Assembly: GCA_020630245.1 (NCBI GenBank)
Contig: JAHDBZ010000001.1
Location: 60,402 to 95,322, forward strand
Length of the DNA stretch: 34,921 nucleotides
Direction of reading: 5' to 3'
Source of the DNA: Candidatus Altimarinota bacterium
GTDB taxonomy: Bacteria; Patescibacteriota; Gracilibacteria; UBA4473
The notes under the pieces were generated by a model that ran no database searches, was not told where the DNA came from, and saw nothing but the letters and a program-made list of their open reading frames with translations. A program made the position numbers and the translations under genes. Positions 6,144 through 33,502 of this stretch are shown in pieces; the first letter of the stretch is position 1, and every line of letters starts with the position of its first letter.

Positions 6144-8252
6144 ATGAACGTTGTAAAAAAGGAACTCCCGTTGGGAGAAAACGTATTCAGCTTTGAAGCT
6201 GGAAAATTTGCCCATCAAGCTGATGGTGCCGTTATGGTCTCGAATGGAGATTGTAAAATTTTGGTTACCGCCCAAATGGGAGGTGCCCGAGACGGGATGG
6301 ATTTCTTTCCTCTCGTGGTTGAATTCGAGCCTCGTTATTACTCAGCGGGTCGACTCAAACATTCAAAAGTCAATAAACGAGAAGGACGAAAAAGTGATCC
6401 AGATGTCCTTACTTGCCGAGTGACGGATCGTCCGTTGCGACCTATGTTCCCAAAAGGAATGCGTAATGAAGTCCAAATCATTGCCACTCAATTTCAAACC
6501 GATGGTGACCATGCTTCAGCGCCACTCTGTATTACCGGCGCTAGTCTCGCTATCCAAATGGCGGGAATGCCGTTTGAGCGATCGGTTTCAGCCGTGCAGG
6601 TTGGAATGGACGCCCAAGGAAACTTTATCACGAATCCATCCGGCACGCAGATTGCCGAATCAGGGCTAGATTTTGTGGTTGCTGGGACGGAGGACTCGAT
6701 CATGATGGTCGAAGCCGGGGCCAACCTAATTTCAAACGAAAAAGCCGTCGAGGTTCTCGAGTACGCGCATGCAGAGATCAAAAAGCTTTGTAAGTTACAG
6801 GATGAATTTTTGGCTGGAATGACCATCGAGGTCAAAGAATACGAGGTCGCGTCAGAATCTGATACCTATGCCCGCGCAGCGGAACTCGTCGATCAGCACA
6901 TTACCGAAGACGAATTTACTACCATTGCGGGGACGACTAAAAAAGAAGTTAAGAAGAAAATGCACGTTCTTGAAGAAAAACTCTTTGCAGCTTGTGCAGC
7001 GGAACTCGAAACTGAAGAAGTTTCAAAAGGAGACTTAGTCGGAGCCTTTGAAAAACGTTTTGCGAAAAATATGCGAGCGCGGGTCTTCACCACTGGAAAA
7101 CGAGTCGATGGTCGTGGTATTGACGATGTTCGAGATCTCTATGTAGAGACAGGGCTTTTCGATCGAGTCCATGGTTCAGGTCTTTTCCAGCGTGGTGAAA
7201 CGCAAGCGCTCACGATGCTTACCCTTGGAGGACCAGATGATGAAAAATACGTAGACACGACGGATGGTGGTGAGCGACGTGCTCGCTACATCCATCATTA
7301 TAACTTCCCGCCTTACTCAGTGGGGGAGACACGAATGTTGCGCGGACCGGGTCGTCGAGAGATTGGACACGGAGCTTTAGCAGAGCGAGCTCTGAGCTAT
7401 GTCATGCCAAAAGAAGAAGATGGTTGGCAGTACACAGTTCGTTGTGTGTCAGAGATCCTGAGCTGTAATGGTTCGAGTTCAATGGCTTCAGTTTGTGGAT
7501 CGACACTGGCTCTGATGGACGCCGGAGTACCGATCAAAACACCAATTGCGGGGATCGCTATGGGACTGCTAATGCAGGACGACGGGGATTTCCGAATTCT
7601 TACTGATATTCAAGGTCTCGAAGATTTCGATGGAGATATGGATTTCAAAGTAACGGGAGACGAAGAAGGTATCACAGCTCTACAGCTAGATATCAAACTC
7701 AAAGGGCTCGATCTATCACTGCTGAAAGATGCCTTGGAACGAGCGAAAGTCGCTCGAACACATATCCTAGGCGCTATGAAAGCTGAAATCGCGGTGCCAA
7801 ACCCAGAGATGAATGCACACGCACCACTGATCGAAACGATGAAGATCGACCCGGATCAGATCCGAGATATTATTGGTAAAGGCGGCGCTGTAATCCAAGG
7901 AATGTGTGCCGATTACGATGTAAAAATTAGCGTCGAAGATGACGGAACGGTTATCATCGCCGGTCTTAAGGAAGGTATCAATGGTGCGCGTAATCAAATC
8001 GAAATGATTACCTACACGCCCGAAGTCGGAGATGAGTTCCAGGATTGTGAAGTCAAAACGATCGTTGATTTCGGAGCTTTTGTTCAGTACGCACCAGGCA
8101 AGGATGGGCTGGTTCACATCTCTCAGATTGCAGAGGAACGTGTCGAAAAAGTTGAGGACTACCTCAAAGTTGGTCAAAAGGTGAATGTAAAACTTACCGA
8201 AATTGATCGACAAGGACGGGTTAAGCTGTCGATGAAAGGAATGAATAACTAG
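6144..8252 (+). CDS. pnp: Polyribonucleotide nucleotidyltransferase (PNPase)
   Basis: 702 aa with two RNase PH domains, then KH (IGKGGAVIQ) and S1 ([19 protein letters not shown]) domains. Conserved rpsO-pnp synteny. Confidence 0.97.
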
Positions 8253-9772: not shown

Positions 9773-11179
9773 TTATCTAACGCCTAAATCTTTCTTGAGC
9801 GCATGAATATGCCGAGCGGTAGCACTGTCAGTGCGGGCCAAGTCCTTAACTTTGCGGACTCCGTGCATGATCGTGGTGTGGTTTTTACCACCGAAGGCTT
9901 CGCCGATGCCTTCGAAACTCATTTTGAGGACATCTTTGCACAGTAGCCAGCTGATCTGACGCGGAAAGACGATCTCTTGTTTGCGAGAGGTACCGATGAG
10001 GTCGGTTGCTGGGATCTGAAAGTAATCAGAAATCAGCGTAATGATATCATCTGGGTTGCGAGCCAGGCTGCGGTGTTCACGACCGGTAATGAGGTCTTCG
10101 TTAGGCTGCAGCTGTCGGAATATTTTTCCGACACTCTGGATCGTAGGAGAGACTTGACTGAGCTCGAGCTCAGCGTGAATCATGTTGAGTACGTTTTCGA
10201 CTTCGCGTAGATTCTTTCGAACATTAGTGGCGATGAATTGTTGTACGTCTTCGGGAAGAATAAGGCCCAAAGCTTGAGCCTTGGCTCGGATGATAGCCAT
10301 CTTGGTTTCGTAGCTCGGCATGGTGACGTCTACCACTAGACCCCAACCGAAACGAGAACTAAGACGGTCAGCCATTTTTTCCAGCTGAGCCGGTGGACGG
10401 TCAGCGGAGAAGATCATTTGTTTGTTGAGATCTCTTAGATCGTTAAACGTATTAAAGACTTCGACCTGGGTTTTTTCTTTGCCGGCAAAAAATTGTACGT
10501 CGTCGATTAGTAGTACATCAACCCGGCGGTATTTTTTTCGAAGGGCTTCTGTCTTGCCCTCACGAATGGCTTTGATCGCTTCATTCGTAAATCGTTCAGC
10601 GGTGGTGTAGATGACAACCGCCTCAGGGTTTTGTTGACGGATTGCATTGGCCGTTCCTTGGAGGAGGTGTGTTTTCCCAAGTCCCACGCCGCCATAAAGA
10701 TAGAGAGGGTTGTAGGCTTTAGCTTCTTGACCGGCAGTTTGAGCGACCGCCAGACAAGCGGCGTGTGCCAGTCGATTTTTTTCTCCAACGATGAAGTTGT
10801 CGAGTGTGAACTTGTTTTGCACCAGTCGAGATTCAAGTCCCGAAGCGTGTTTTTCGGTTGGTTGTTTTGGAAGTTTTCGAGGCGCTTTTGGTTTTGCAAA
10901 AGCCGGAGCGATAACGGCTGGTTTGTCAGCCAGCGTTAGATCTACGTTGAAATAGATACGGTCAATCTCTGGTAGAGTTTTTTGTACGTTGTTGAGTAGA
11001 ATGGTCTGATATTTGTTTTCCAACCAGTTTTTATTCATCTCAGTTGGACAGCTAATGAGGACCGCTGATCCAGAGATTTCTTTGAGATGTACTTTTTTAA
11101 ACCAGGTATGAAATTCCATGCGTGAAATCTTCTGAGAAAGATTTTCTAGCACTTGGTTCCAGACTTGGGTTTTGTCCAT
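9773..11179 (-). CDS. dnaA: Chromosomal replication initiator protein DnaA
   Basis: AAA+ Walker A (GGVGLGKTHLL), Walker B (LLIDDVQF) and the C-terminal DNA-binding domain (NHTTIMHGVRKV). ATG at 11179 (MDKTQVWNQV) is preferred over the track's TTG at 11185. Confidence 0.95.
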   Translation of the reverse strand: MDKTQVWNQVLENLSQKISRMEFHTWFKKVHLKEISGSAVLISCPTEMNKNWLENKYQTILLNNVQKTLPEIDRIYFNVDLTLADKPAVIAPAFAKPKAPRKLPKQPTEKHASGLESRLVQNKFTLDNFIVGEKNRLAHAACLAVAQTAGQEAKAYNPLYLYGGVGLGKTHLLQGTANAIRQQNPEAVVIYTTAERFTNEAIKAIREGKTEALRKKYRRVDVLLIDDVQFFAGKEKTQVEVFNTFNDLRDLNKQMIFSADRPPAQLEKMADRLSSRFGWGLVVDVTMPSYETKMAIIRAKAQALGLILPEDVQQFIATNVRKNLREVENVLNMIHAELELSQVSPTIQSVGKIFRQLQPNEDLITGREHRSLARNPDDIITLISDYFQIPATDLIGTSRKQEIVFPRQISWLLCKDVLKMSFEGIGEAFGGKNHTTIMHGVRKVKDLARTDSATARHIHALKKDLGVR

Positions 11180-11229
11180 GATCAATAAATATTTTGAGGG
11201 GGTTTTTTGTTTTTTGTCACATTGAGAAA

Positions 11230-19540: not shown

Positions 19541-19980
19541 GGGGGTGATATGGCCTCGACGGAGTTCTTTGAAAGATCATAACTGGCGTTTCCGGGTTCG
19601 CATGGTGTACCGGTTATCCACTTCCATGTTACTTTTAAGTGCAAACTTTAAAGAATTCGCTCAAAAACGAATCCAAGGTGCTACTCGCTCTCTAGCTAAC
19701 GCTTTTGCAGCTCCAGTACCAGTAATGGCTTAGTTCCGAGCTTCATTAAATCCTAGTTGAGCTTAGGCTCCTAGGTGTCAGTGCACTCTACCGCGGTGTG
19801 CATTGTCTGTTTATGCGGAGTAGTCTAATCACCTCGTCTCAGTGATCGGATGAAGCTTTTGAGACAACTTCCCATTGTATTTGTTGGTTTTGTTGATGGG
19901 TCGTAACTAAATCAACTACAAACGTAGAAGGTTATCGTCTTTGACTTCGGACGCGGGTTCAATTCCCGCCACCTCCACCA
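19541..19980 (+). ncRNA. ssrA: tmRNA (SsrA), about 440 nt
   Basis: The 5' GGGGGTGATATGGCCTCGACGG pairs with the 3' CACCTCCACCA to give a 7-bp acceptor stem with a G3-U wobble. The T-arm is GCGGG-TTCAATT-CCCGC, CCA is encoded, and TTTTTT follows. The tag frame GCA AAC ... GTA ATG GCT TAG ends at 19733. Confidence 0.92.
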
Positions 19981-27812: not shown

Positions 27813-27894
27813 AAGATCCTTCCCTTCGACAGGCTCAGGGCAGGCTGCTCAGGATGAGTTCGACTAACAGCTCACAAGTTCGCTGAGTCTCACT
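27813..27894 (-). repeat. Intergenic repeat family, copy C (82 nt, minus strand)
   Basis: The reverse complement aligns to copy B at about 67/82 positions by hand count. Its AGTGAGACT box overlaps the mscS stop codon, and it ends 8 nt before the ogt ATG. Confidence 0.85.
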
Positions 27895-28762
27895 ACACCT
27901 CGACCTCATACTTTCCCGTTGGATCTTTGGTTTCGTAGTAGTGGTGAATGTCTTGTTGTGGATATGGGATACTGATGCCATTAGCATCGAATTCAGCTTT
28001 GGCCAGTTCAAAGAAATCTGCTGGCAGGCCAACATAGTGCTTGTCTTGACACCAGACTCGGAGATTTAGATCGACAGAACTTTCTCCAAGATTCCCGACA
28101 AAGACTTCTGGCTCGTGTCCTTTTTCTTTAAGGATTTTTTTGTTGTCTTTGGCTAGATTTAAGAGGATGTCTTTGGCTTTCTTGATGTCGTCTTCGTAAC
28201 CAATACCAAAGATGATGTCGTGACGACGCGTGCCAAGGGAAGTGTAGTTTTCGATGGCATCGTTAGAAATAGCACCATTTGGGATGATGATTTTTTTGTG
28301 ATCTGGTGTGTGGAGAACGGTGTTGAAGATTTGGATCTGTTTTACAACCCCGTCGTATCCTTGGGCCAGGATATGGTCACCGACTTTGTACGGCTTGAAA
28401 AGTAGGATCAAGACACCACCGGCAAAATTTGCGAGTGATCCTTGCAGCGCTAAACCAACGGCCAAACCGGCGGCCCCGACTAAGGCTACGAAAGATGAAG
28501 TCTGCACACCAAGCATGCCGGCAACCGCGATAAAGAGCACGATCTTAAGTGTGATGGCAATCAGGCTCTCGAGAAAACCAGCAACCGAAGGATCAAGGTG
28601 CTGTTTTGCAAAAATCTTGTCGAGAATTTTGTTGAGGAGTTTAATAGCCTTGAGTCCAACAAATAAAACAACCAGGGCCAACAGGAGTTTGGGTGCGTAG
28701 CTCGCAACCATTTCGACTCCTAGATCAATGTACTTTTGTACATCTAGATTAGAAAAATCCAT
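27893..28762 (-). CDS. mscS: Small-conductance mechanosensitive channel (MscS family)
   Basis: 289 aa with the pore helix GVQTSSFVALVGAAGLAVGLALQGSLANFAGGVLILLFKPYKVGD. Confidence 0.9.
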   Translation of the reverse strand: MDFSNLDVQKYIDLGVEMVASYAPKLLLALVVLFVGLKAIKLLNKILDKIFAKQHLDPSVAGFLESLIAITLKIVLFIAVAGMLGVQTSSFVALVGAAGLAVGLALQGSLANFAGGVLILLFKPYKVGDHILAQGYDGVVKQIQIFNTVLHTPDHKKIIIPNGAISNDAIENYTSLGTRRHDIIFGIGYEDDIKKAKDILLNLAKDNKKILKEKGHEPEVFVGNLGESSVDLNLRVWCQDKHYVGLPADFFELAKAEFDANGISIPYPQQDIHHYYETKDPTGKYEVEV

Positions 28763-28819
28763 GATATAGTGGGTTAAAGTAACTTCAGTTTAGCAGGGAA
28801 AACCAGAAGCTGTAAAGGA

Positions 28820-29638
28820 CTAGTTTTGCGGGAAGGCGAAGACGTCACGGAGTTCGATTTTTTCCTGACGGAAAGCTTCCTGGATCACTTCTAGCATGCC
28901 GTAGTACACATCCCAGTAGTCTTTGGTCTTTACCCAGCCACGAAGGCTGATCTCCACGCCGCGCTCTGTCAGGTCCTTAACCACGATTTCAGGGGTTGGC
29001 TTGTCGAGGAAACGTTTTTCCTTTTTGGCCAAGGCGAGGAGATTTTTACGTACTTTTTTGAGGTCTTCGTCATAGTGCAGATGGAGCGTTAGGTCGACGC
29101 GACGGGTGCGTTTTGCGGTGTAGTTTCGGATACAATCATTGGAAAGTTTTCCATTTGGGATGACGATGGCTTGGTTGTCGGTGGTTTTGAGGGTGGTGTT
29201 GAAGATCTGAATGCTTTCCACCGTGCCTACAAATCCTTGGGCTTCGATGTAGTCACCGATCTTAAACGGTTTAAAGATCAAAATTAGCACCCCGCCGGCA
29301 AAGTTGGCCAACGAGCCCTGCAATGCTAGACCAATGGCGAGACCGGCCGCCCCCACGAGCGCTACCAATGAGCTGGTCTGCACACCGAGCATCGAGGCTA
29401 CGATGATGAGTAGTACTATTTTGAGGCCAATACTGATAAGGCTACCAAGAAAACTGCGGACGGCTTGATCGAGTCGGGCATGCTTAAGAGCGCGTAATGC
29501 GACGTGATTGATCCACTTGATGATGATCCAGCCGATAAGCAAGGTCAGGATGGCGAAGATCAGCCGTGGTGCTAATCCTTCGATCAATTTGAGTGTGTAT
29601 TCGATGGCGTGAAGGACGATGTCGGTATTGAATTCCAT
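28820..29638 (-). CDS. mscS: Small-conductance mechanosensitive channel (MscS family), tandem paralog
   Basis: 272 aa with a near-identical pore region, GVQTSSLVALVGAAGLAIGLALQGSLANFAGGVLILIFKPFKIGD. Confidence 0.9.
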   Translation of the reverse strand: MEFNTDIVLHAIEYTLKLIEGLAPRLIFAILTLLIGWIIIKWINHVALRALKHARLDQAVRSFLGSLISIGLKIVLLIIVASMLGVQTSSLVALVGAAGLAIGLALQGSLANFAGGVLILIFKPFKIGDYIEAQGFVGTVESIQIFNTTLKTTDNQAIVIPNGKLSNDCIRNYTAKRTRRVDLTLHLHYDEDLKKVRKNLLALAKKEKRFLDKPTPEIVVKDLTERGVEISLRGWVKTKDYWDVYYGMLEVIQEAFRQEKIELRDVFAFPQN

Positions 29639-29719
29639 GTTGTTTAGATATTAAGCTGTTTGGAGGGTGGGTTCAAAAAAGTTTGACTATAAATCAAAAA
29701 CATTTAACTTGGTGGTTAG

Positions 29720-29782
29720 ATGTTTCAGACCATGATCACAATTACGACAAAGAAAACGGGGCGCCGCCTCGGAGTGTCGTAG
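29720..29782 (+). CDS. Candidate leader peptide MFQTMITITTKKTGRRLGVS (attenuation-type)
   Basis: A 20-codon ORF in the 206-nt gap upstream of the aspartokinase-like gene. Residues 4-13 (TMITITTKKT) are all Thr, Met, Ile or Lys. An intrinsic terminator follows, with alternative pairings. Confidence 0.55.
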   Translation: MFQTMITITTKKTGRRLGVS

Positions 29783-29811
29783 TGAGTAGATCCAAGATCT
29801 GAGATGCTATG

Positions 29812-29837
29812 CCGCTCCACATGGAAGCGGTTTTTTT
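29812..29837 (+). terminator. Intrinsic terminator (attenuator segments 3:4) upstream of the aspartokinase-like gene
   Basis: CCGCTCC (29812-29818) pairs with GG(A)AGCGG (29823-29830) for 7 bp with one bulge. The loop is ACAT and TTTTTTT follows at 29831-29837. Confidence 0.65.
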
Positions 29838-29844
29838 AAAATTT

Positions 29845-31500
29845 ATGAATCAAACAATGAACGCTGTACCAGAAACAAACAACTTAGAGTTATTAAATTC
29901 AGCAGAAGTTTTAGTCAGTAAGATTGGCGGAGATAATGCACCGTTGTTAGCTCAGAATTATACGAATGTTCGTAAAAGGTTAGAACGAGGGCAAAAAACT
30001 ATTTTGGTAGTATCTGCCATGCGTAGCTCTGATGCAAAGTATTCAGAATTAAGACATCCAGAGGTAATAGACCGAGACTCTTCGGGAGAAATAAAGCCGG
30101 GGTTTAATACAACTTCTCACCTGAAAAAGATCGGAGAGTTCTTAAATGCCAAAAATATTGTCGAAGCCAAAAATATTTATGCTTCTGTTTCTGATTTTTT
30201 GGTGAACCTAATTATGGAGGCACTACAAGATGAGTCTGCGACTATTTCATCCAAAGTCTTAGCGAGCTTAAAGGATTGTTTATCGGCTTTTGGTGCGGAA
30301 CTGGAAGCCTTTGATCCGGAGCAAGATAAAATTCTTATGCTAGATAAAGATAATTTAATCCAAAAATCAGATGGCAAATTGATTTCTCTTACTGGTTTTG
30401 GAGAAACGGTTTCGAAAATAGTTTATGAGCGTTACTTCAGCTTAAAAGAGCTTGATACCGCTACATCTAATGTAGATGGAGCGTTTGAGGCAGTCTTCCA
30501 GGGAAACGATCCAGTACAAATCTTGGCCGATGTTGGAGAGAATTCAGCAGCGCAAGAAAGACTCAGAGCTCAAATTTCATCGGACATTTCAGATGTAATA
30601 GATGACAACGAGGTTATTGTGCTAGGTGGTTATGCGCCACTGATTGCAAGTGAGAGAGGTTACACTGAAAAAATGGGTGCCCGCACGACAGTTGTGGTCA
30701 AAGAAATTGGTAAAAAGGTGGCTTATCTGATTGAAAAAGTATTCCCGATCATGAGCGCTGATCCACGAAAGTTGGGAACCGACAGAACTCAGGTAGTTCA
30801 GCACATGGGTTGGGATTTGGCGAAGGAAACTTTTGGTGTTAATTTTGGAGCTGATGGTGGGGCCGTGCAGGCAGAAGCTTTGGATATTTTAGAAGATGGA
30901 GGCGTAGAAGCTTTTGTTTGTGACCCAGAATACATAACTTCAGATCGCATTACTCGAATCTTTGATCATCAACCAGGTCCCAATGGTATTGAAATGGTGC
31001 AGGCTCGTCAGGCAGCGTCTGTGATCCAGATCAAGTCTAGTGCTATGAATACGCCTGGCTTTACAGCGCGTATCGGAAGCTGGTTCCAAGAGCGTAATAT
31101 ATCATATGACCATTCAGCCACCAGTGAGACGACAATGACTTTTGCTTTTGGTAAATATGAGTTTACGGAGGAAGACGAAGCCGCACTTAAAGAAGAAATG
31201 GGAGAAGGATTTGATACTCGCGTTGAAAAAGATATTACTTTGCTTTTTTGTCTCGGAAATAACATGGGACATGTTGGGCCCATGCATCGAGCGACGACGG
31301 GACTTAAGATGGCTGGGGTTAGTACTCGCCTGGTAACGCAGGGGATTAATGAACGTGTGATGATATTTGGAATTGATCATGACCAGTTAGATGCAGCATT
31401 AGACAGAGTGCATTGGTGGGGGGTGGAGCTTTCCGATGATCGTTATGCGGATTACCTAAACCTGACAAAAGATTTTGAAAAAAGGCAAAAAGTGGTTTAA
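29845..31500 (+). CDS. Aspartokinase-like amino-acid-kinase family protein with a C-terminal ACT-like region
   Basis: LVSKIGG, ILVVSAM, GFGETVS, VIVLGGY and MSADPRKL line up with aspartate kinase motifs, and the C-terminus looks ACT-like (ITLLFCLGNNMGHVG...). ATG 29845 or 29857 is preferred because the track start 29809 contains the terminator hairpin. Confidence 0.6.
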   Translation: MNQTMNAVPETNNLELLNSAEVLVSKIGGDNAPLLAQNYTNVRKRLERGQKTILVVSAMRSSDAKYSELRHPEVIDRDSSGEIKPGFNTTSHLKKIGEFLNAKNIVEAKNIYASVSDFLVNLIMEALQDESATISSKVLASLKDCLSAFGAELEAFDPEQDKILMLDKDNLIQKSDGKLISLTGFGETVSKIVYERYFSLKELDTATSNVDGAFEAVFQGNDPVQILADVGENSAAQERLRAQISSDISDVIDDNEVIVLGGYAPLIASERGYTEKMGARTTVVVKEIGKKVAYLIEKVFPIMSADPRKLGTDRTQVVQHMGWDLAKETFGVNFGADGGAVQAEALDILEDGGVEAFVCDPEYITSDRITRIFDHQPGPNGIEMVQARQAASVIQIKSSAMNTPGFTARIGSWFQERNISYDHSATSETTMTFAFGKYEFTEEDEAALKEEMGEGFDTRVEKDITLLFCLGNNMGHVGPMHRATTGLKMAGVSTRLVTQGINERVMIFGIDHDQLDAALDRVHWWGVELSDDRYADYLNLTKDFEKRQKVV

Positions 31501-31556
31501 TTTTTCCGAATAAAAAACTTGTTCACAGGAGGAAGTCTATTTATTATTTAAACGAC

Positions 31557-31865
31557 ATGCTTGAAGCTTCTCTCTCCGATATCGAATCCGCCGCGGCAAA
31601 TCTTGAAGATACTTCTGAGGCAGTTTCTCATGTGATTGTACCGAGCCCAAAAGAGGCTCGAAGCATAGATCAAGTCTTAGCAGATACCAGTAGTATGGCG
31701 TACTTAGCTTGGCATGCTGATGTAGCGCATGAAGCCATCAAAAAATCCGGCACAGTACCGGTGGTAGGAGCCTTTGCTCAAGAAAGGTTTGAGGCGCGGA
31801 TGGAGGCTACCAGAAAAAAAGTACAAAAAGTAGACCATAGACCGCCGATGGATTGCGCTCTCTAG
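31557..31865 (+). CDS. Hypothetical small acidic protein
   Basis: 102-aa ORF with no recognisable motif. Its stop overlaps the convergent SufD-like gene by 4 nt. Confidence 0.4.
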   Translation: MLEASLSDIESAAANLEDTSEAVSHVIVPSPKEARSIDQVLADTSSMAYLAWHADVAHEAIKKSGTVPVVGAFAQERFEARMEATRKKVQKVDHRPPMDCAL

Positions 31866-32386
31866 CTCAAAAATCCAGTTTTCAGCATATCGTGGGCTTC
31901 ATCAGAAGCAATACCGCGTGATTGGAGGTAGAGGATCTGCTCTCGATCAACTGGGGCGATAGAGGCACCATGTGAGGCGGATTTTACTTTGTCCGTTTCG
32001 ACACGCAGAACTGGAAGGGAGCGGCCTTTGGCATCATCAAAAAGGATGATGCGTTCTTCGATGTTGGCGTCGGCGTCGACAGATGTTTGAGCCAGCGTAG
32101 CGGCACCATCAAACTCGAGAAAACTTTGGTCTTCTGCCGTGCCACGTAGGTCTATGGAACCGATTTGTTCGGTGCCCTGAAAAATTTGCTTTACCTGCCA
32201 TGATTTACGGTCGCTACCGTGCGTTTGAGCGCGCCCATGGATGTGGCATTCGGCCTGGTCGCCGAGGAGTTCAACGGTGAGCTGGAAATCACGACTGCCT
32301 GGCTCGAAGTCTTGGAGCGTAATATTGAGCGATTGGTTGTCTGCAACCTTTATTACTTTTTGCCCTTCGGGATTGATTAGTTCCAT
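31862..32386 (-). CDS. SufB/SufD family protein, truncated (C-terminal beta-helix part only)
   Basis: The C-terminus KSASHGASIAPVDREQILYLQSRGIASDEAHDMLKTGFL matches the conserved SufBD C-terminal motif. ATG 32386 (MELINPEG) is preferred over the track's TTG 32422. Confidence 0.6.
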   Translation of the reverse strand: MELINPEGQKVIKVADNQSLNITLQDFEPGSRDFQLTVELLGDQAECHIHGRAQTHGSDRKSWQVKQIFQGTEQIGSIDLRGTAEDQSFLEFDGAATLAQTSVDADANIEERIILFDDAKGRSLPVLRVETDKVKSASHGASIAPVDREQILYLQSRGIASDEAHDMLKTGFLS

Positions 32387-32425
32387 CGGTTGGAAAGATA
32401 ATCGTTTTCCTCTACAATTCAACTA

Positions 32426-33502
32426 ATGCAATGGTTTAAAAATAAATGGTTAAAACTCCGTCATCGCCTCGGCCTAGGAGCTATTGAGTGGGATATGACA
32501 CTTGATAAAGTGTTTGATCGACTCGCGATCATGAAGCAGGAACCAGAACAAAAACAAACCATTTCGATTCGAGTAGTAGAAGACGCCAAGATCGGTTGGC
32601 TCTACTGGATGGAGCTGACACTATCGGTGCTGATTGCGACCTTCGGTTTGCTCCAAAACTCGGTAGCGGTGATCATCGGAGCGATGCTGATCGCCCCGTT
32701 TTTGCGACCGATTCAGGGAGTGGCCTTTGCGATCGCCAATGGCCGACGGAAGCTCCTCTGGAACACGCTACAGACACTGACGATTAGTACGTTGTACTCG
32801 ATTTTTTTGGCTTGGTTAGTGCTCGGACTGGTGCCCTACGCGGAGGTGACACCAGAGATACTGAGTCGAACGGCTCCCAACACTTTTGACCTTTTCATCG
32901 CGATCTTCTCGGCGATGGTAGCGAGTCTCGCTCATGCCTATCAACGATTATATGAAAGTGTGGCTGGGGTGGCGATGGCGACCGCAATTGTCCCGCCGCT
33001 GGCGGTGATCGGGATCATGATTTTCTTTGGAGACTTTACGTTGGCGTGGGGTAGTTTTGTGCTCTACCTAACTAACCTCGTGGCGATTCTCTTGATCGGA
33101 GTAGTGATGTTTATCTTCTATGGCTTTAACCCGCACAAACAAGAATCAGAGTCCTCTCTCAAACGAATTGGGATTTTGTTTTTAGTTACGTTTGTGTTGT
33201 GGTTTGTGCTGAGTTCTGGTCTGCAAAAGATCGAAGAAAATCGTACCTTGCAAAAGAGTACGTATCAAACGCTGCTGCAGACTTTGGACAAAGATCTTCC
33301 AGGAGCTAAGGTCAAAGACTTCGAAATCATTGAGACCAAGGAAGGTCACACCATCAATGGACAACTGTTTGTCGATGATCAAACGCGGATCACGCATGGG
33401 AAGCTTAAGGACATCAAATCTGGACTCTCTGAAAAACTCGGTCGAGACTTTGAGCTCGAGCTCGATATCGTGCGGACGGTGAGTATCGAAGGAGAAGAGT
33501 AA
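32426..33502 (+). CDS. DUF389 family (TIGR00341-like) integral membrane protein
   Basis: 358 aa. LIATFGLLQNSVAVIIGAMLIAPFLRPI and repeated hydrophobic helices are typical of DUF389. Confidence 0.55.
   Translation: MQWFKNKWLKLRHRLGLGAIEWDMTLDKVFDRLAIMKQEPEQKQTISIRVVEDAKIGWLYWMELTLSVLIATFGLLQNSVAVIIGAMLIAPFLRPIQGVAFAIANGRRKLLWNTLQTLTISTLYSIFLAWLVLGLVPYAEVTPEILSRTAPNTFDLFIAIFSAMVASLAHAYQRLYESVAGVAMATAIVPPLAVIGIMIFFGDFTLAWGSFVLYLTNLVAILLIGVVMFIFYGFNPHKQESESSLKRIGILFLVTFVLWFVLSSGLQKIEENRTLQKSTYQTLLQTLDKDLPGAKVKDFEIIETKEGHTINGQLFVDDQTRITHGKLKDIKSGLSEKLGRDFELELDIVRTVSIEGEE

Follow-up and report, generated by a model that had tools for sequence, protein, structure and literature searches.

In a 34,921-nt stretch of DNA from Candidatus Altimarinota bacterium (contig JAHDBZ010000001.1), which is referred to here as the window, a highly divergent aspartokinase gene is preceded by a leader that most probably acts as a ribosome-mediated (leader-peptide) transcription attenuator controlling this gene, a reading strongly supported by comparison with relatives and in line with models of RNA folding. 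The leader consists of a short open reading frame (mini-ORF) with ten successive codons for Thr, Met, Ile or Lys, of RNA segments whose pairings are mutually exclusive and of an intrinsic terminator placed just before the gene (Table 1), and analogous leaders are found upstream of orthologous genes in 20 other distinct loci. The host belongs to the Candidate Phyla Radiation (CPR), bacteria that are uncultured, have reduced genomes and are usually described as amino-acid auxotrophs; to our knowledge, almost nothing is known about RNA regulation in these organisms.

The leader of the window and its alternative folds

The mini-ORF was first proposed in a first-pass annotation made from the letters of the sequence alone, and both its limits (ATG at 29720, TAG at 29780-82) and the ten consecutive Thr, Met, Ile or Lys residues (residues 4-13, TMITITTKKT) were confirmed. 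This is the sole run of at least seven such residues across the six frames of the 34.9-kb window, and a run of at least ten was seen in none of 200 shuffled windows. The region from 29600 to 29900 is 100% identical in L042, an independent assembly of the same strain (SRR14415274), which indicates that the leader sequence is no assembly artefact. Upstream lie two tandem paralogues encoding MscS-type mechanosensitive channels (27893-28762 and 28820-29638), both on the minus strand and thus divergent from the attenuator region. Since the spacer is a divergent intergenic region, the hairpin that it contains cannot terminate the neighbouring gene. The gap of 206 nt originally given is right when measured from the mscS start at 29638 to the ATG at 29845, but it amounts to 206-218 nt depending on the gene start, and the real start favoured by homologue alignment and by the NCBI call is the ATG at 29857.

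Table 1. Elements of the leader and of the gene that follows it, in window coordinates.
Feature	Position	Strand	Description
Predicted -35 box, TTGACT	29683..29688	+	best sigma-70-like match upstream of the mini-ORF
Predicted -10 box, TAACTT	29705..29710	+	16-nt spacer; ends 9 nt ahead of the mini-ORF ATG
Leader mini-ORF	29720..29782	+	20 codons + TAG, product MFQTMITITTKKTGRRLGVS; 20 other distinct loci have an analogous ORF before the orthologous gene
Outer helix, 5' strand (off-state fold)	29722..29730	+	pairs with 29796-29805 in the minimum free energy (MFE) structure; analogous to the AUGCAGC:GCUGC closing helix of Peribacteria leaders
Regulatory codon run	29729..29758	+	Thr4 Met5 Ile6 Thr7 Ile8 Thr9 Thr10 Lys11 Lys12 Thr13
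Segment 1	29741..29749	+	ATTACGACA (RNA AUUACGACA), codons Ile8-Thr10; anti-antiterminator, pairs with 29775-29783
Small G+C hairpin within the 1:2 helix	29757..29771	+	GGGGCG / CCUCGG region; MFE structure
Segment 2	29771..29783	+	GGAGUGUCGUAGU; holds the leader stop UAG (29780-82); pairs with segment 1 or segment 3
Segment 3	29806..29818	+	GCUAUGCCGCUCC; antiterminator 3' strand and terminator 5' arm
Terminator hairpin (3:4)	29812..29830	+	7 bp, bulged A29825, 4-nt loop ACAU, -9.2 kcal/mol
U7 tract of the intrinsic terminator	29831..29837	+	directly after the hairpin
Regulated gene	29857..31500	+	divergent aspartokinase-like protein, 547 aa; in-frame alternative starts at 29845, 29821 and 29809

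Two of the pairings are as first described: segment 1 (ATTACGACA, 29741-49) forms 9 bp, one of them G-U, with TGTCGTAGT (29775-83), and the terminator stem (29812-30) is directly followed by T7 (29831-37). The third had been understated. GGAGTG (29771-76) is indeed complementary to CGCTCC (29813-18), but the 6 bp reported are part of an antiterminator that in full pairs GGAGUG-U-CGUAGU (29771-83) with GCUAUG-C-CGCUCC (29806-18), i.e. 12 bp with one 1x1 mismatch and -17.6 kcal/mol. The leader as a whole (29712-29840) is highly structured, folding at -45 kcal/mol as against -30.2 ± 3.2 kcal/mol for dinucleotide shuffles (z = -4.58, with 0/200 as good). The comparison of conformers that the first-pass annotation had suggested gives -40.8 kcal/mol for the unconstrained MFE, an extended, irregular hairpin that spans the entire ORF and includes 1:2, together with the terminator, and -32.6 kcal/mol when the antiterminator is enforced, which is thus dearer by 8.2 kcal/mol.

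The balance between these folds is predicted to depend on the position of the ribosome, as assessed with masking models that assume equilibrium and a given footprint. When the A site is placed anywhere from Ile6 to Thr13, the MFE flips to the antiterminator, which becomes 0.5-6.4 kcal/mol better than the terminator fold, and once it has moved on to Gly14 or any later codon up to the stop, the MFE is the terminator fold again. In partition-function calculations, the probability of the terminator is 0.92 in the absence of a ribosome, 0.24-0.38 with a ribosome at Ile6-Ile8, 0.00-0.01 at Thr9-Thr13 and again 0.92 from codon 15 to the stop. The stalling logic originally put forward, in which a stall leads to read-through and a ribosome that reaches the stop leads to termination, holds in this thermodynamic model, where the terminator also forms when no ribosome is bound.

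The protein encoded downstream is, as judged from sequence profiles, a very divergent member of the aspartokinase superfamily with a predicted substrate. Pfam recognizes in it an ACT domain (ACT_9) alone, and the NCBIfam aspartate-kinase models score 17-47 bits, short of equivalog cut-offs of 209-802. The 'aspartokinase-like' label nevertheless stands as far as fold is concerned, with PF00696 (AA_kinase) present in homologues and a profile of 13 family members matching the solved aspartokinases 2cdq, 2j0w and 3c1m from the PDB with E-values of 5e-23 to 7e-19. A SKIGGDNA motif (N-terminal K-x-G-G) is invariant among this aspartokinase-like family. The closest non-identical relative of the window protein displays 38% identity; the named relatives all come from metagenome-assembled genomes of Candidatus Peregrinibacteria/Peribacteria, plus one 'Altimarinota', and three of the four NCBI-named homologues are labelled 'hypothetical protein'. 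The N-termini of homologues align at 29845-29857, the NCBI model (P0001, 547 aa) beginning at 29857, which places the hairpin upstream of the coding region. A longer model (P0014, 563 aa, Logan) that begins at the ATG at 29809, inside the terminator hairpin, is over-extended, since the homologue N-termini favour the shorter one, and this public gene call is in need of correction. At the other end of the gene, no conserved gene was found 3' of it across the loci compared; an operon continuing downstream was rejected on this basis, and the regulated unit is monocistronic in the window.

Related leaders, their pairings and their promoters

Related loci were sought by scanning GTDB genomes and JGI metagenomes with protein alignment, which yielded 38 loci. 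Among the genome loci with readable upstream DNA, 14 of 18 carry the leader and metagenome loci add more, giving 21 distinct leaders including that of the window, all upstream of orthologous genes of 30-38% protein identity. The lack of a conserved mini-ORF had been named beforehand as something that would refute attenuation; the element is conserved over about 21 lineages, and the proposal withstands this check. In each leader, an ORF running from a start codon to a stop in the same frame contains a stretch of 7-9 residues, 6-9 of them Lys, Thr, Met (or Ile), and a G+C hairpin is present. The U-rich run behind this hairpin is weak in L012, L013, L014 and L029; homologue hairpins were set by hand because automatic terminator finding failed on weak U tails. 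Examples of the leader peptides are MQLVSSMKKTTKTSRSGKDGC, MQLLGHTKTMKTKKTSSYRKGDC, MQLLCFSSATKKTMKKTTSSRGELRA, MIHCCYTTTKTTKTTSSGGRLSV and MTVPFSSAGTKTKKTKTAPVRGYAFVQ. No recognisable leader and no Rfam element were found in L016, L017 and L019, and apart from the identical L042 contig the search returned no relative of the window protein above 38% identity.

What is conserved in these peptides is composition. Lys, Thr, Met and Ile together make up 42% of the 463 non-initiator leader residues, as against 19% of the residues in the aspartokinase proteins. The order of the Lys, Thr and Met codons is permuted between lineages and the composition kept, Thr is encoded by a mixture of synonymous codons (ACC 40, ACG 23, ACA 10 and ACT 6), and AGG, an Arg codon one base away from AAG, ACG and ATG, occurs eight times in the 21 leaders versus 83 times for AAG, lying outside the best Lys/Thr/Met windows in the peptides inspected. 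The varied codon order, the synonymous Thr codons and the rarity of AGG argue that the constraint bears on amino-acid identity and not on nucleotide sequence. The other two reading frames of the leaders contain 31 and 6 stops. Of the codon set originally proposed, Lys, Thr and Met are regulatory codons family-wide, but Ile is peculiar to the window.

Hardly any sequence is common to the window leader and those of Peribacteria, yet their codon content and layout are the same, and the C-terminal peptide of the window leader (GRRLGVS*) is similar to that of L014 (GGRLSV*). A covariance model built from 16 Peribacteria leaders finds leaders that were not in the training set (L012 at 9e-7, L031 at 0.006 and L029 at 0.045). 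The upstream neighbour gene differs in the three loci annotated, which together with the unconserved downstream genes suggests that the leader travels with the aspartokinase gene. In L010/L039, a Lys/Thr/Met mini-ORF (MSLSTLLKTAKMTKLPLSRGGMAA, at 1775-1849 of L010) is found upstream of dapA (PF00701), and the aspartokinase gene comes directly after dapA. The promoter spacing of this mini-ORF is the same as in the other leaders (region 1735-1960 of L010), and the structure upstream of dapA folds no better than shuffles (z = -0.78).

Throughout the family, the terminator 5' arm and the bases preceding it (e.g. CAGCCCCCUUCCC) find their complement in segment 2 (e.g. GGGAAGGACGGCUGC), and the antiterminator pairs are lineage specific: GAGGGGAGCUGC:GCAGCCCCCUC in L006, CUGGAGG:CCUCCAG in L012 and GGAGG..GAUGG:CCAUC..CCUCC in L008. 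Because MAFFT and covariance-model alignments put the terminator arms of sub-lineages in different registers, cognate and permuted partners were compared in an alignment-free test. In 10 lineage representatives, the cognate duplexes between segments 2 and 3 sum to -195.7 kcal/mol, whereas permuted ones reach -152.8 ± 9.8 kcal/mol (p about 1e-5). The off-state consensus of the 16 Peribacteria leaders, which consists of a helix at the stop codon between AUGCAGC and GCUGC, plus the 1:2 hairpin and the terminator, has 92% of its cells paired versus 27-55% for slid controls, and contains 11 compensatory cells versus 3.8 in shuffles (0/500 as high). In a prefix model, in which the transcript is folded up to the terminator loop, a ribosome stalled in the run leaves the terminator 5' arm of the 21 leaders free with a mean probability of 0.21, as against 0.76 for one at the stop codon.

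The first of the consensus helices deserves a mention of its own. In most Peribacteria leaders (the L001-L037 set), the AUGCAGC start region pairs with GCUGC just ahead of the stop codon (92.5% of cells), which explains the conserved Gln2 and the C-terminal Gly-Cys of these peptides. Since GGCUGC is also part of the antiterminator, a probably leaderless mRNA would use its own 5' end as the anti-antiterminator strand.

A leaderless or near-leaderless start is suggested by the promoters. A TTGACA-like -35 box occurs at an equal relative position in 21/21 leaders (two corrected by hand), and in a scan the distance from the -10 box to the start codon was 6-10 nt in 19/21, the remaining two fitting by eye, L031 via an in-frame upstream ATG and L006 via an alternative promoter. 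Judging by its -10 box, transcription of the window leader would begin 0-4 nt from the ATG at 29720, and the mini-ORFs of the window and of the family are on these sequence grounds probably leaderless or near-leaderless. A generic promoter/terminator scanner flagged neither the promoter nor the terminator of the window leader, owing to the bulged stem and the weak -10 box, and this miss was not counted against either element. No Shine-Dalgarno motif was found in the 30 nt upstream of the starts of 20 genes in the window, where the upstream regions are A/T-rich or neutral. GGTGG (29711-15) was considered as a Shine-Dalgarno sequence for the mini-ORF and is unlikely to be one: it lies between the -10 box and the ATG, nothing like it is seen in the homologues, and the genes of the window have no such motif. 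In Peribacteria loci, a C-rich (CCUCC-like) region lies ahead of the aspartokinase start; it resembles the anti-Shine-Dalgarno sequence and not its complement.

A leader of another kind was noticed in L040 (Candidatus Peribacteria contig ANAN16-1 scaffold_22, 7800-8030), where a Leu leader peptide (MHQRQLSLGLSLLALSLIEGLLLTAEGRPRA, with Leu at 10 of its 31 positions) follows a TTGACA/TAAAAT promoter ending 12 nt upstream and is itself followed by a hairpin and a U-run. It precedes an HMGL-like/HCS_D2 (leuA-like) gene, which is immediately upstream of the aspartokinase leader, and its 3' end (GGAAGGACGGCCGCGUGCGUAG) resembles the latter. From its sequence, this Leu leader suggests that the lineage makes general use of leader-peptide attenuation.

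Proposed mechanism and competing explanations

The mechanism that we infer would operate as follows. Transcription would begin at the promoter at about 29683-29710, a few nucleotides ahead of the ATG, and a ribosome would load on the leaderless or near-leaderless 5' end and translate the mini-ORF. With charged Thr-, Ile-, Lys- and Met-tRNAs plentiful, it would reach the UAG at 29780 and cover segment 2 (29771-83), upon which the hairpin at 29812-30 would form with U7 and RNA polymerase would stop about 10-20 nt short of the gene. In the absence of translation, segment 1 (29741-49) would hold segment 2, and the terminator would form again. If any of the four tRNAs were poorly charged, a ribosome stalled in codons 4-13 would mask segment 1, and segment 2 would then pair with 29806-18, sequestering the terminator 5' arm and allowing read-through into the aspartokinase gene. 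Because the aspartate pathway ends in Thr, Met, Ile and Lys, the leader would act as a multivalent feedback sensor, and we propose that it is the transcriptional counterpart of the concerted feedback inhibition of aspartokinases.

Several observations tell against this reading or weaken it for the window. The promoter of the window is weak (8/12 match overall, with 3/6 for the -10 box TAACTT). Its duplex between segments 2 and 3 is matched by 22% of shuffles and ranks 4th of 10 among non-cognate partners; not being exceptional by itself, it leaves the case for an antiterminator in the window resting on the model and on analogy with the relatives. The prefix model, moreover, predicts that even when the ribosome has reached the stop codon the terminator arm of the window is taken up (free 0.15), through a pairing that would have to span the ribosome. 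The covariance model of the Peribacteria leaders hits the window in exactly the right place (29732-29837) but with 16.2 bits and E = 0.32. Covarying stems, which had been named as something to look for, are present in the family in the form of cognate pairing and compensatory changes, but the window has no close relative (the next protein is at 38%), so that no covariation can be read for its own stems. Many Peribacteria leaders, when folded at equilibrium with no ribosome in place, are predicted to form the antiterminator and not the terminator, which means that super-attenuation may not hold there and that kinetics matter. Finally, the metabolic reconstruction of Candidatus Peribacter riflensis features few amino-acid biosynthesis genes (PMC4736985). 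The codon content of the leaders sits uneasily beside that view: it argues that these organisms possess the aspartate-family pathway, or at any rate the step that opens it, and regulate it by its end products, and it would constitute independent evidence that a 'hypothetical' protein opens the Lys/Thr/Met/Ile pathway.

The alternative that survives best, although we regard it as unlikely, is that the mini-ORF is translated and does control the terminator, but that what is sensed is translation capacity, or a nascent-peptide- or drug-dependent arrest of the '+X+' kind. The anatomy of the leader would serve any stall inside the run, K-T-K or K-M-K triplets occur in many family members, and arrest at Arg/Lys-X-Arg/Lys in the presence of macrolides is reported in PMC12583479. 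However, the run of the window (TMITITTKKT) is devoid of K-X-K, and it is the composition of the leaders that is conserved and not the order of a motif. Thr, Lys, Met and Ile are the exact products of the pathway opened by the regulated enzyme, and the regulated gene is a biosynthetic kinase, or dapA together with the kinase, and no resistance gene.

Somewhat less probable again is the idea that the mini-ORF, the hairpin and U7 form an independent gene for a small protein or small RNA that ends at a constitutive terminator of its own, that another promoter serves the aspartokinase gene and that the pairings are incidental. Promoter, ORF and terminator do amount to a formally complete small-gene unit, for which the unexceptional 2:3 duplex of the window would be no embarrassment. 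Yet just 7-19 nt separate U7 from the start codon, leaving no room for a separate promoter, and a scan of 28800-32500 revealed no promoter-like site near the aspartokinase gene. The peptide sequence is unconserved and its composition alone is kept; the unit stays with aspartokinase, or with dapA and aspartokinase, where the flanking genes differ; and the complementarity of the antiterminator co-varies with the sequence of the terminator.

The known families of leaders, riboswitches and T-boxes were rejected by Rfam searches: at gathering score, the whole window and 10 related loci contain no leader, riboswitch (Lysine, SAM) or T-box, the matches being to transfer-messenger RNA (tmRNA) and one tRNA, and at E <= 10 the region 29600-29900 returns a spurious RUF2 match alone and no Thr_leader (RF00506). 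A ligand- or protein-binding RNA (riboswitch or regulator site) whose ORF is a by-product of purine-rich conserved sequence (AAGAAGACC...) is the least likely explanation and very improbable, for while it could appeal to the strong structure (z = -4.58), to the GAAGACCUCC and GGAAGGACGGCUGC stretches that are conserved at nucleotide level within Peribacteria and to the lysine riboswitches that are the usual lysC regulators in other phyla, no Rfam family (Lysine, T-box, SAM and Thr_leader included) matches, the conserved nucleotides outside the codon run are accounted for by the 1:2 and 2:3 pairings, within the run the order varies with amino-acid composition kept and Thr codons varying synonymously, start and stop are in frame in 21/21 leaders despite length changes, and the window leader, with almost no sequence in common with those of Peribacteria, is equal to them in codon content and layout.

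Relation to known attenuators and other features of the window

The leader was initially called 'thrL-like', a term that is apt for its analogous stalling logic but not for its ancestry, since no homology is detectable and there is no Rfam match at E <= 10. As in E. coli thrL, a short leader peptide rich in Thr/Ile codons stands ahead of an aspartokinase gene (thrA in E. coli), four segments engage in mutually exclusive 1:2, 2:3 and 3:4 pairings with an intrinsic terminator just before the gene, and several amino acids would be sensed by a single leader. Unlike in E. coli, the codon set includes Lys and Met (Lys/Thr/Met without Ile in the relatives), control falls on a monocistronic gene for a highly divergent aspartokinase and not on thrABC, a Shine-Dalgarno sequence is lacking, the start is probably leaderless and the host is a CPR bacterium. 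A Lys-codon leader peptide was reportedly described by Tsubouchi et al. in J Biol Chem in 2005 for a lysine gene cluster of Thermus thermophilus; its regulatory codons are likewise Lys, but it belongs to the alpha-aminoadipate pathway, senses a single amino acid and comes from another phylum. The L-box (RF00168) found upstream of lysC in Firmicutes/Gammaproteobacteria has the same target enzyme and brings about premature termination by a pathway end product, but it binds the metabolite directly with no need for translation, and it is absent from the window by Rfam search.

A precedent for the inferred start is Deinococcus deserti, in which transcription starts mapped by differential RNA sequencing (dRNA-seq) coincide with the start codons of predicted leader peptides or are no more than 1 nt away from them; the cognate amino acid abounds in these leaderless peptides, which are encoded ahead of amino-acid biosynthesis or tRNA synthetase genes (PMC4007540). 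The starts were mapped there, whereas here they are deduced from a -10 box 6-10 nt upstream, and phylum, genes and codon sets differ. A precedent for sensing several products is offered by ilvGMEDA in enterobacteria and ilvBNC in Corynebacterium, where one leader peptide has codons for all the end products of a branched pathway (PMC11857589, PMC10272879). There, a shortage of any one end product relieves termination, but the pathway is that of Ile/Leu/Val instead of Lys/Thr/Met/Ile, and no sequence relationship exists. The first-pass annotation was aware of no attenuator of this sort for such a genome, which fits our literature search: in open-access papers, no description of such a leader was found.

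The sequence evidence strongly supports the notion that these leaders form a new family of a classical mechanism in CPR, characterized by a Lys/Thr/Met(/Ile) codon set, a probable leaderless start and unrelated sequence. Classical attenuation would thereby come to include a Lys+Thr+Met codon set and, probably, leaderless initiation. If this is true, transcription-translation coupling and feedback by tRNA charging operate in the CPR. To a broader proposition we would give an even chance, namely that Peregrinibacteria possess lineage-wide leaderless, Shine-Dalgarno-independent attenuators, with Lys/Thr/Met(/Ile) versions on aspartokinase or dapA plus aspartokinase and at least one Leu version on a leuA-like gene. 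These organisms would then keep and regulate aspartate-family and leucine biosynthesis through tRNA charging, and the codon content of attenuators could be used to assign functions to unannotated CPR genes.

Elsewhere in the window, dnaA (9773-11185, minus strand) adjoins purA, and GC skew is positive over the entire 34.9 kb with no sign change, so that the window has no skew-defined origin despite the presence of dnaA. Downstream of the aspartokinase gene, a 186-aa ORF (31862-32422, minus strand) matches the C-terminal portion of the SufB/SufD core domain (profile positions 76-232) and may be a truncated or fragmentary Suf protein, and an unannotated 102-aa ORF (31557-31865) is located between it and the aspartokinase gene, an arrangement that is the same in L042. 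The tmRNA gene lies at 19541-19980 on the plus strand (Rfam, 113.7 bits), and the tag peptide predicted for it by ARAGORN is 30 residues long (ANFKEFAQKRIQGATRSLANAFAAPVPVMA).

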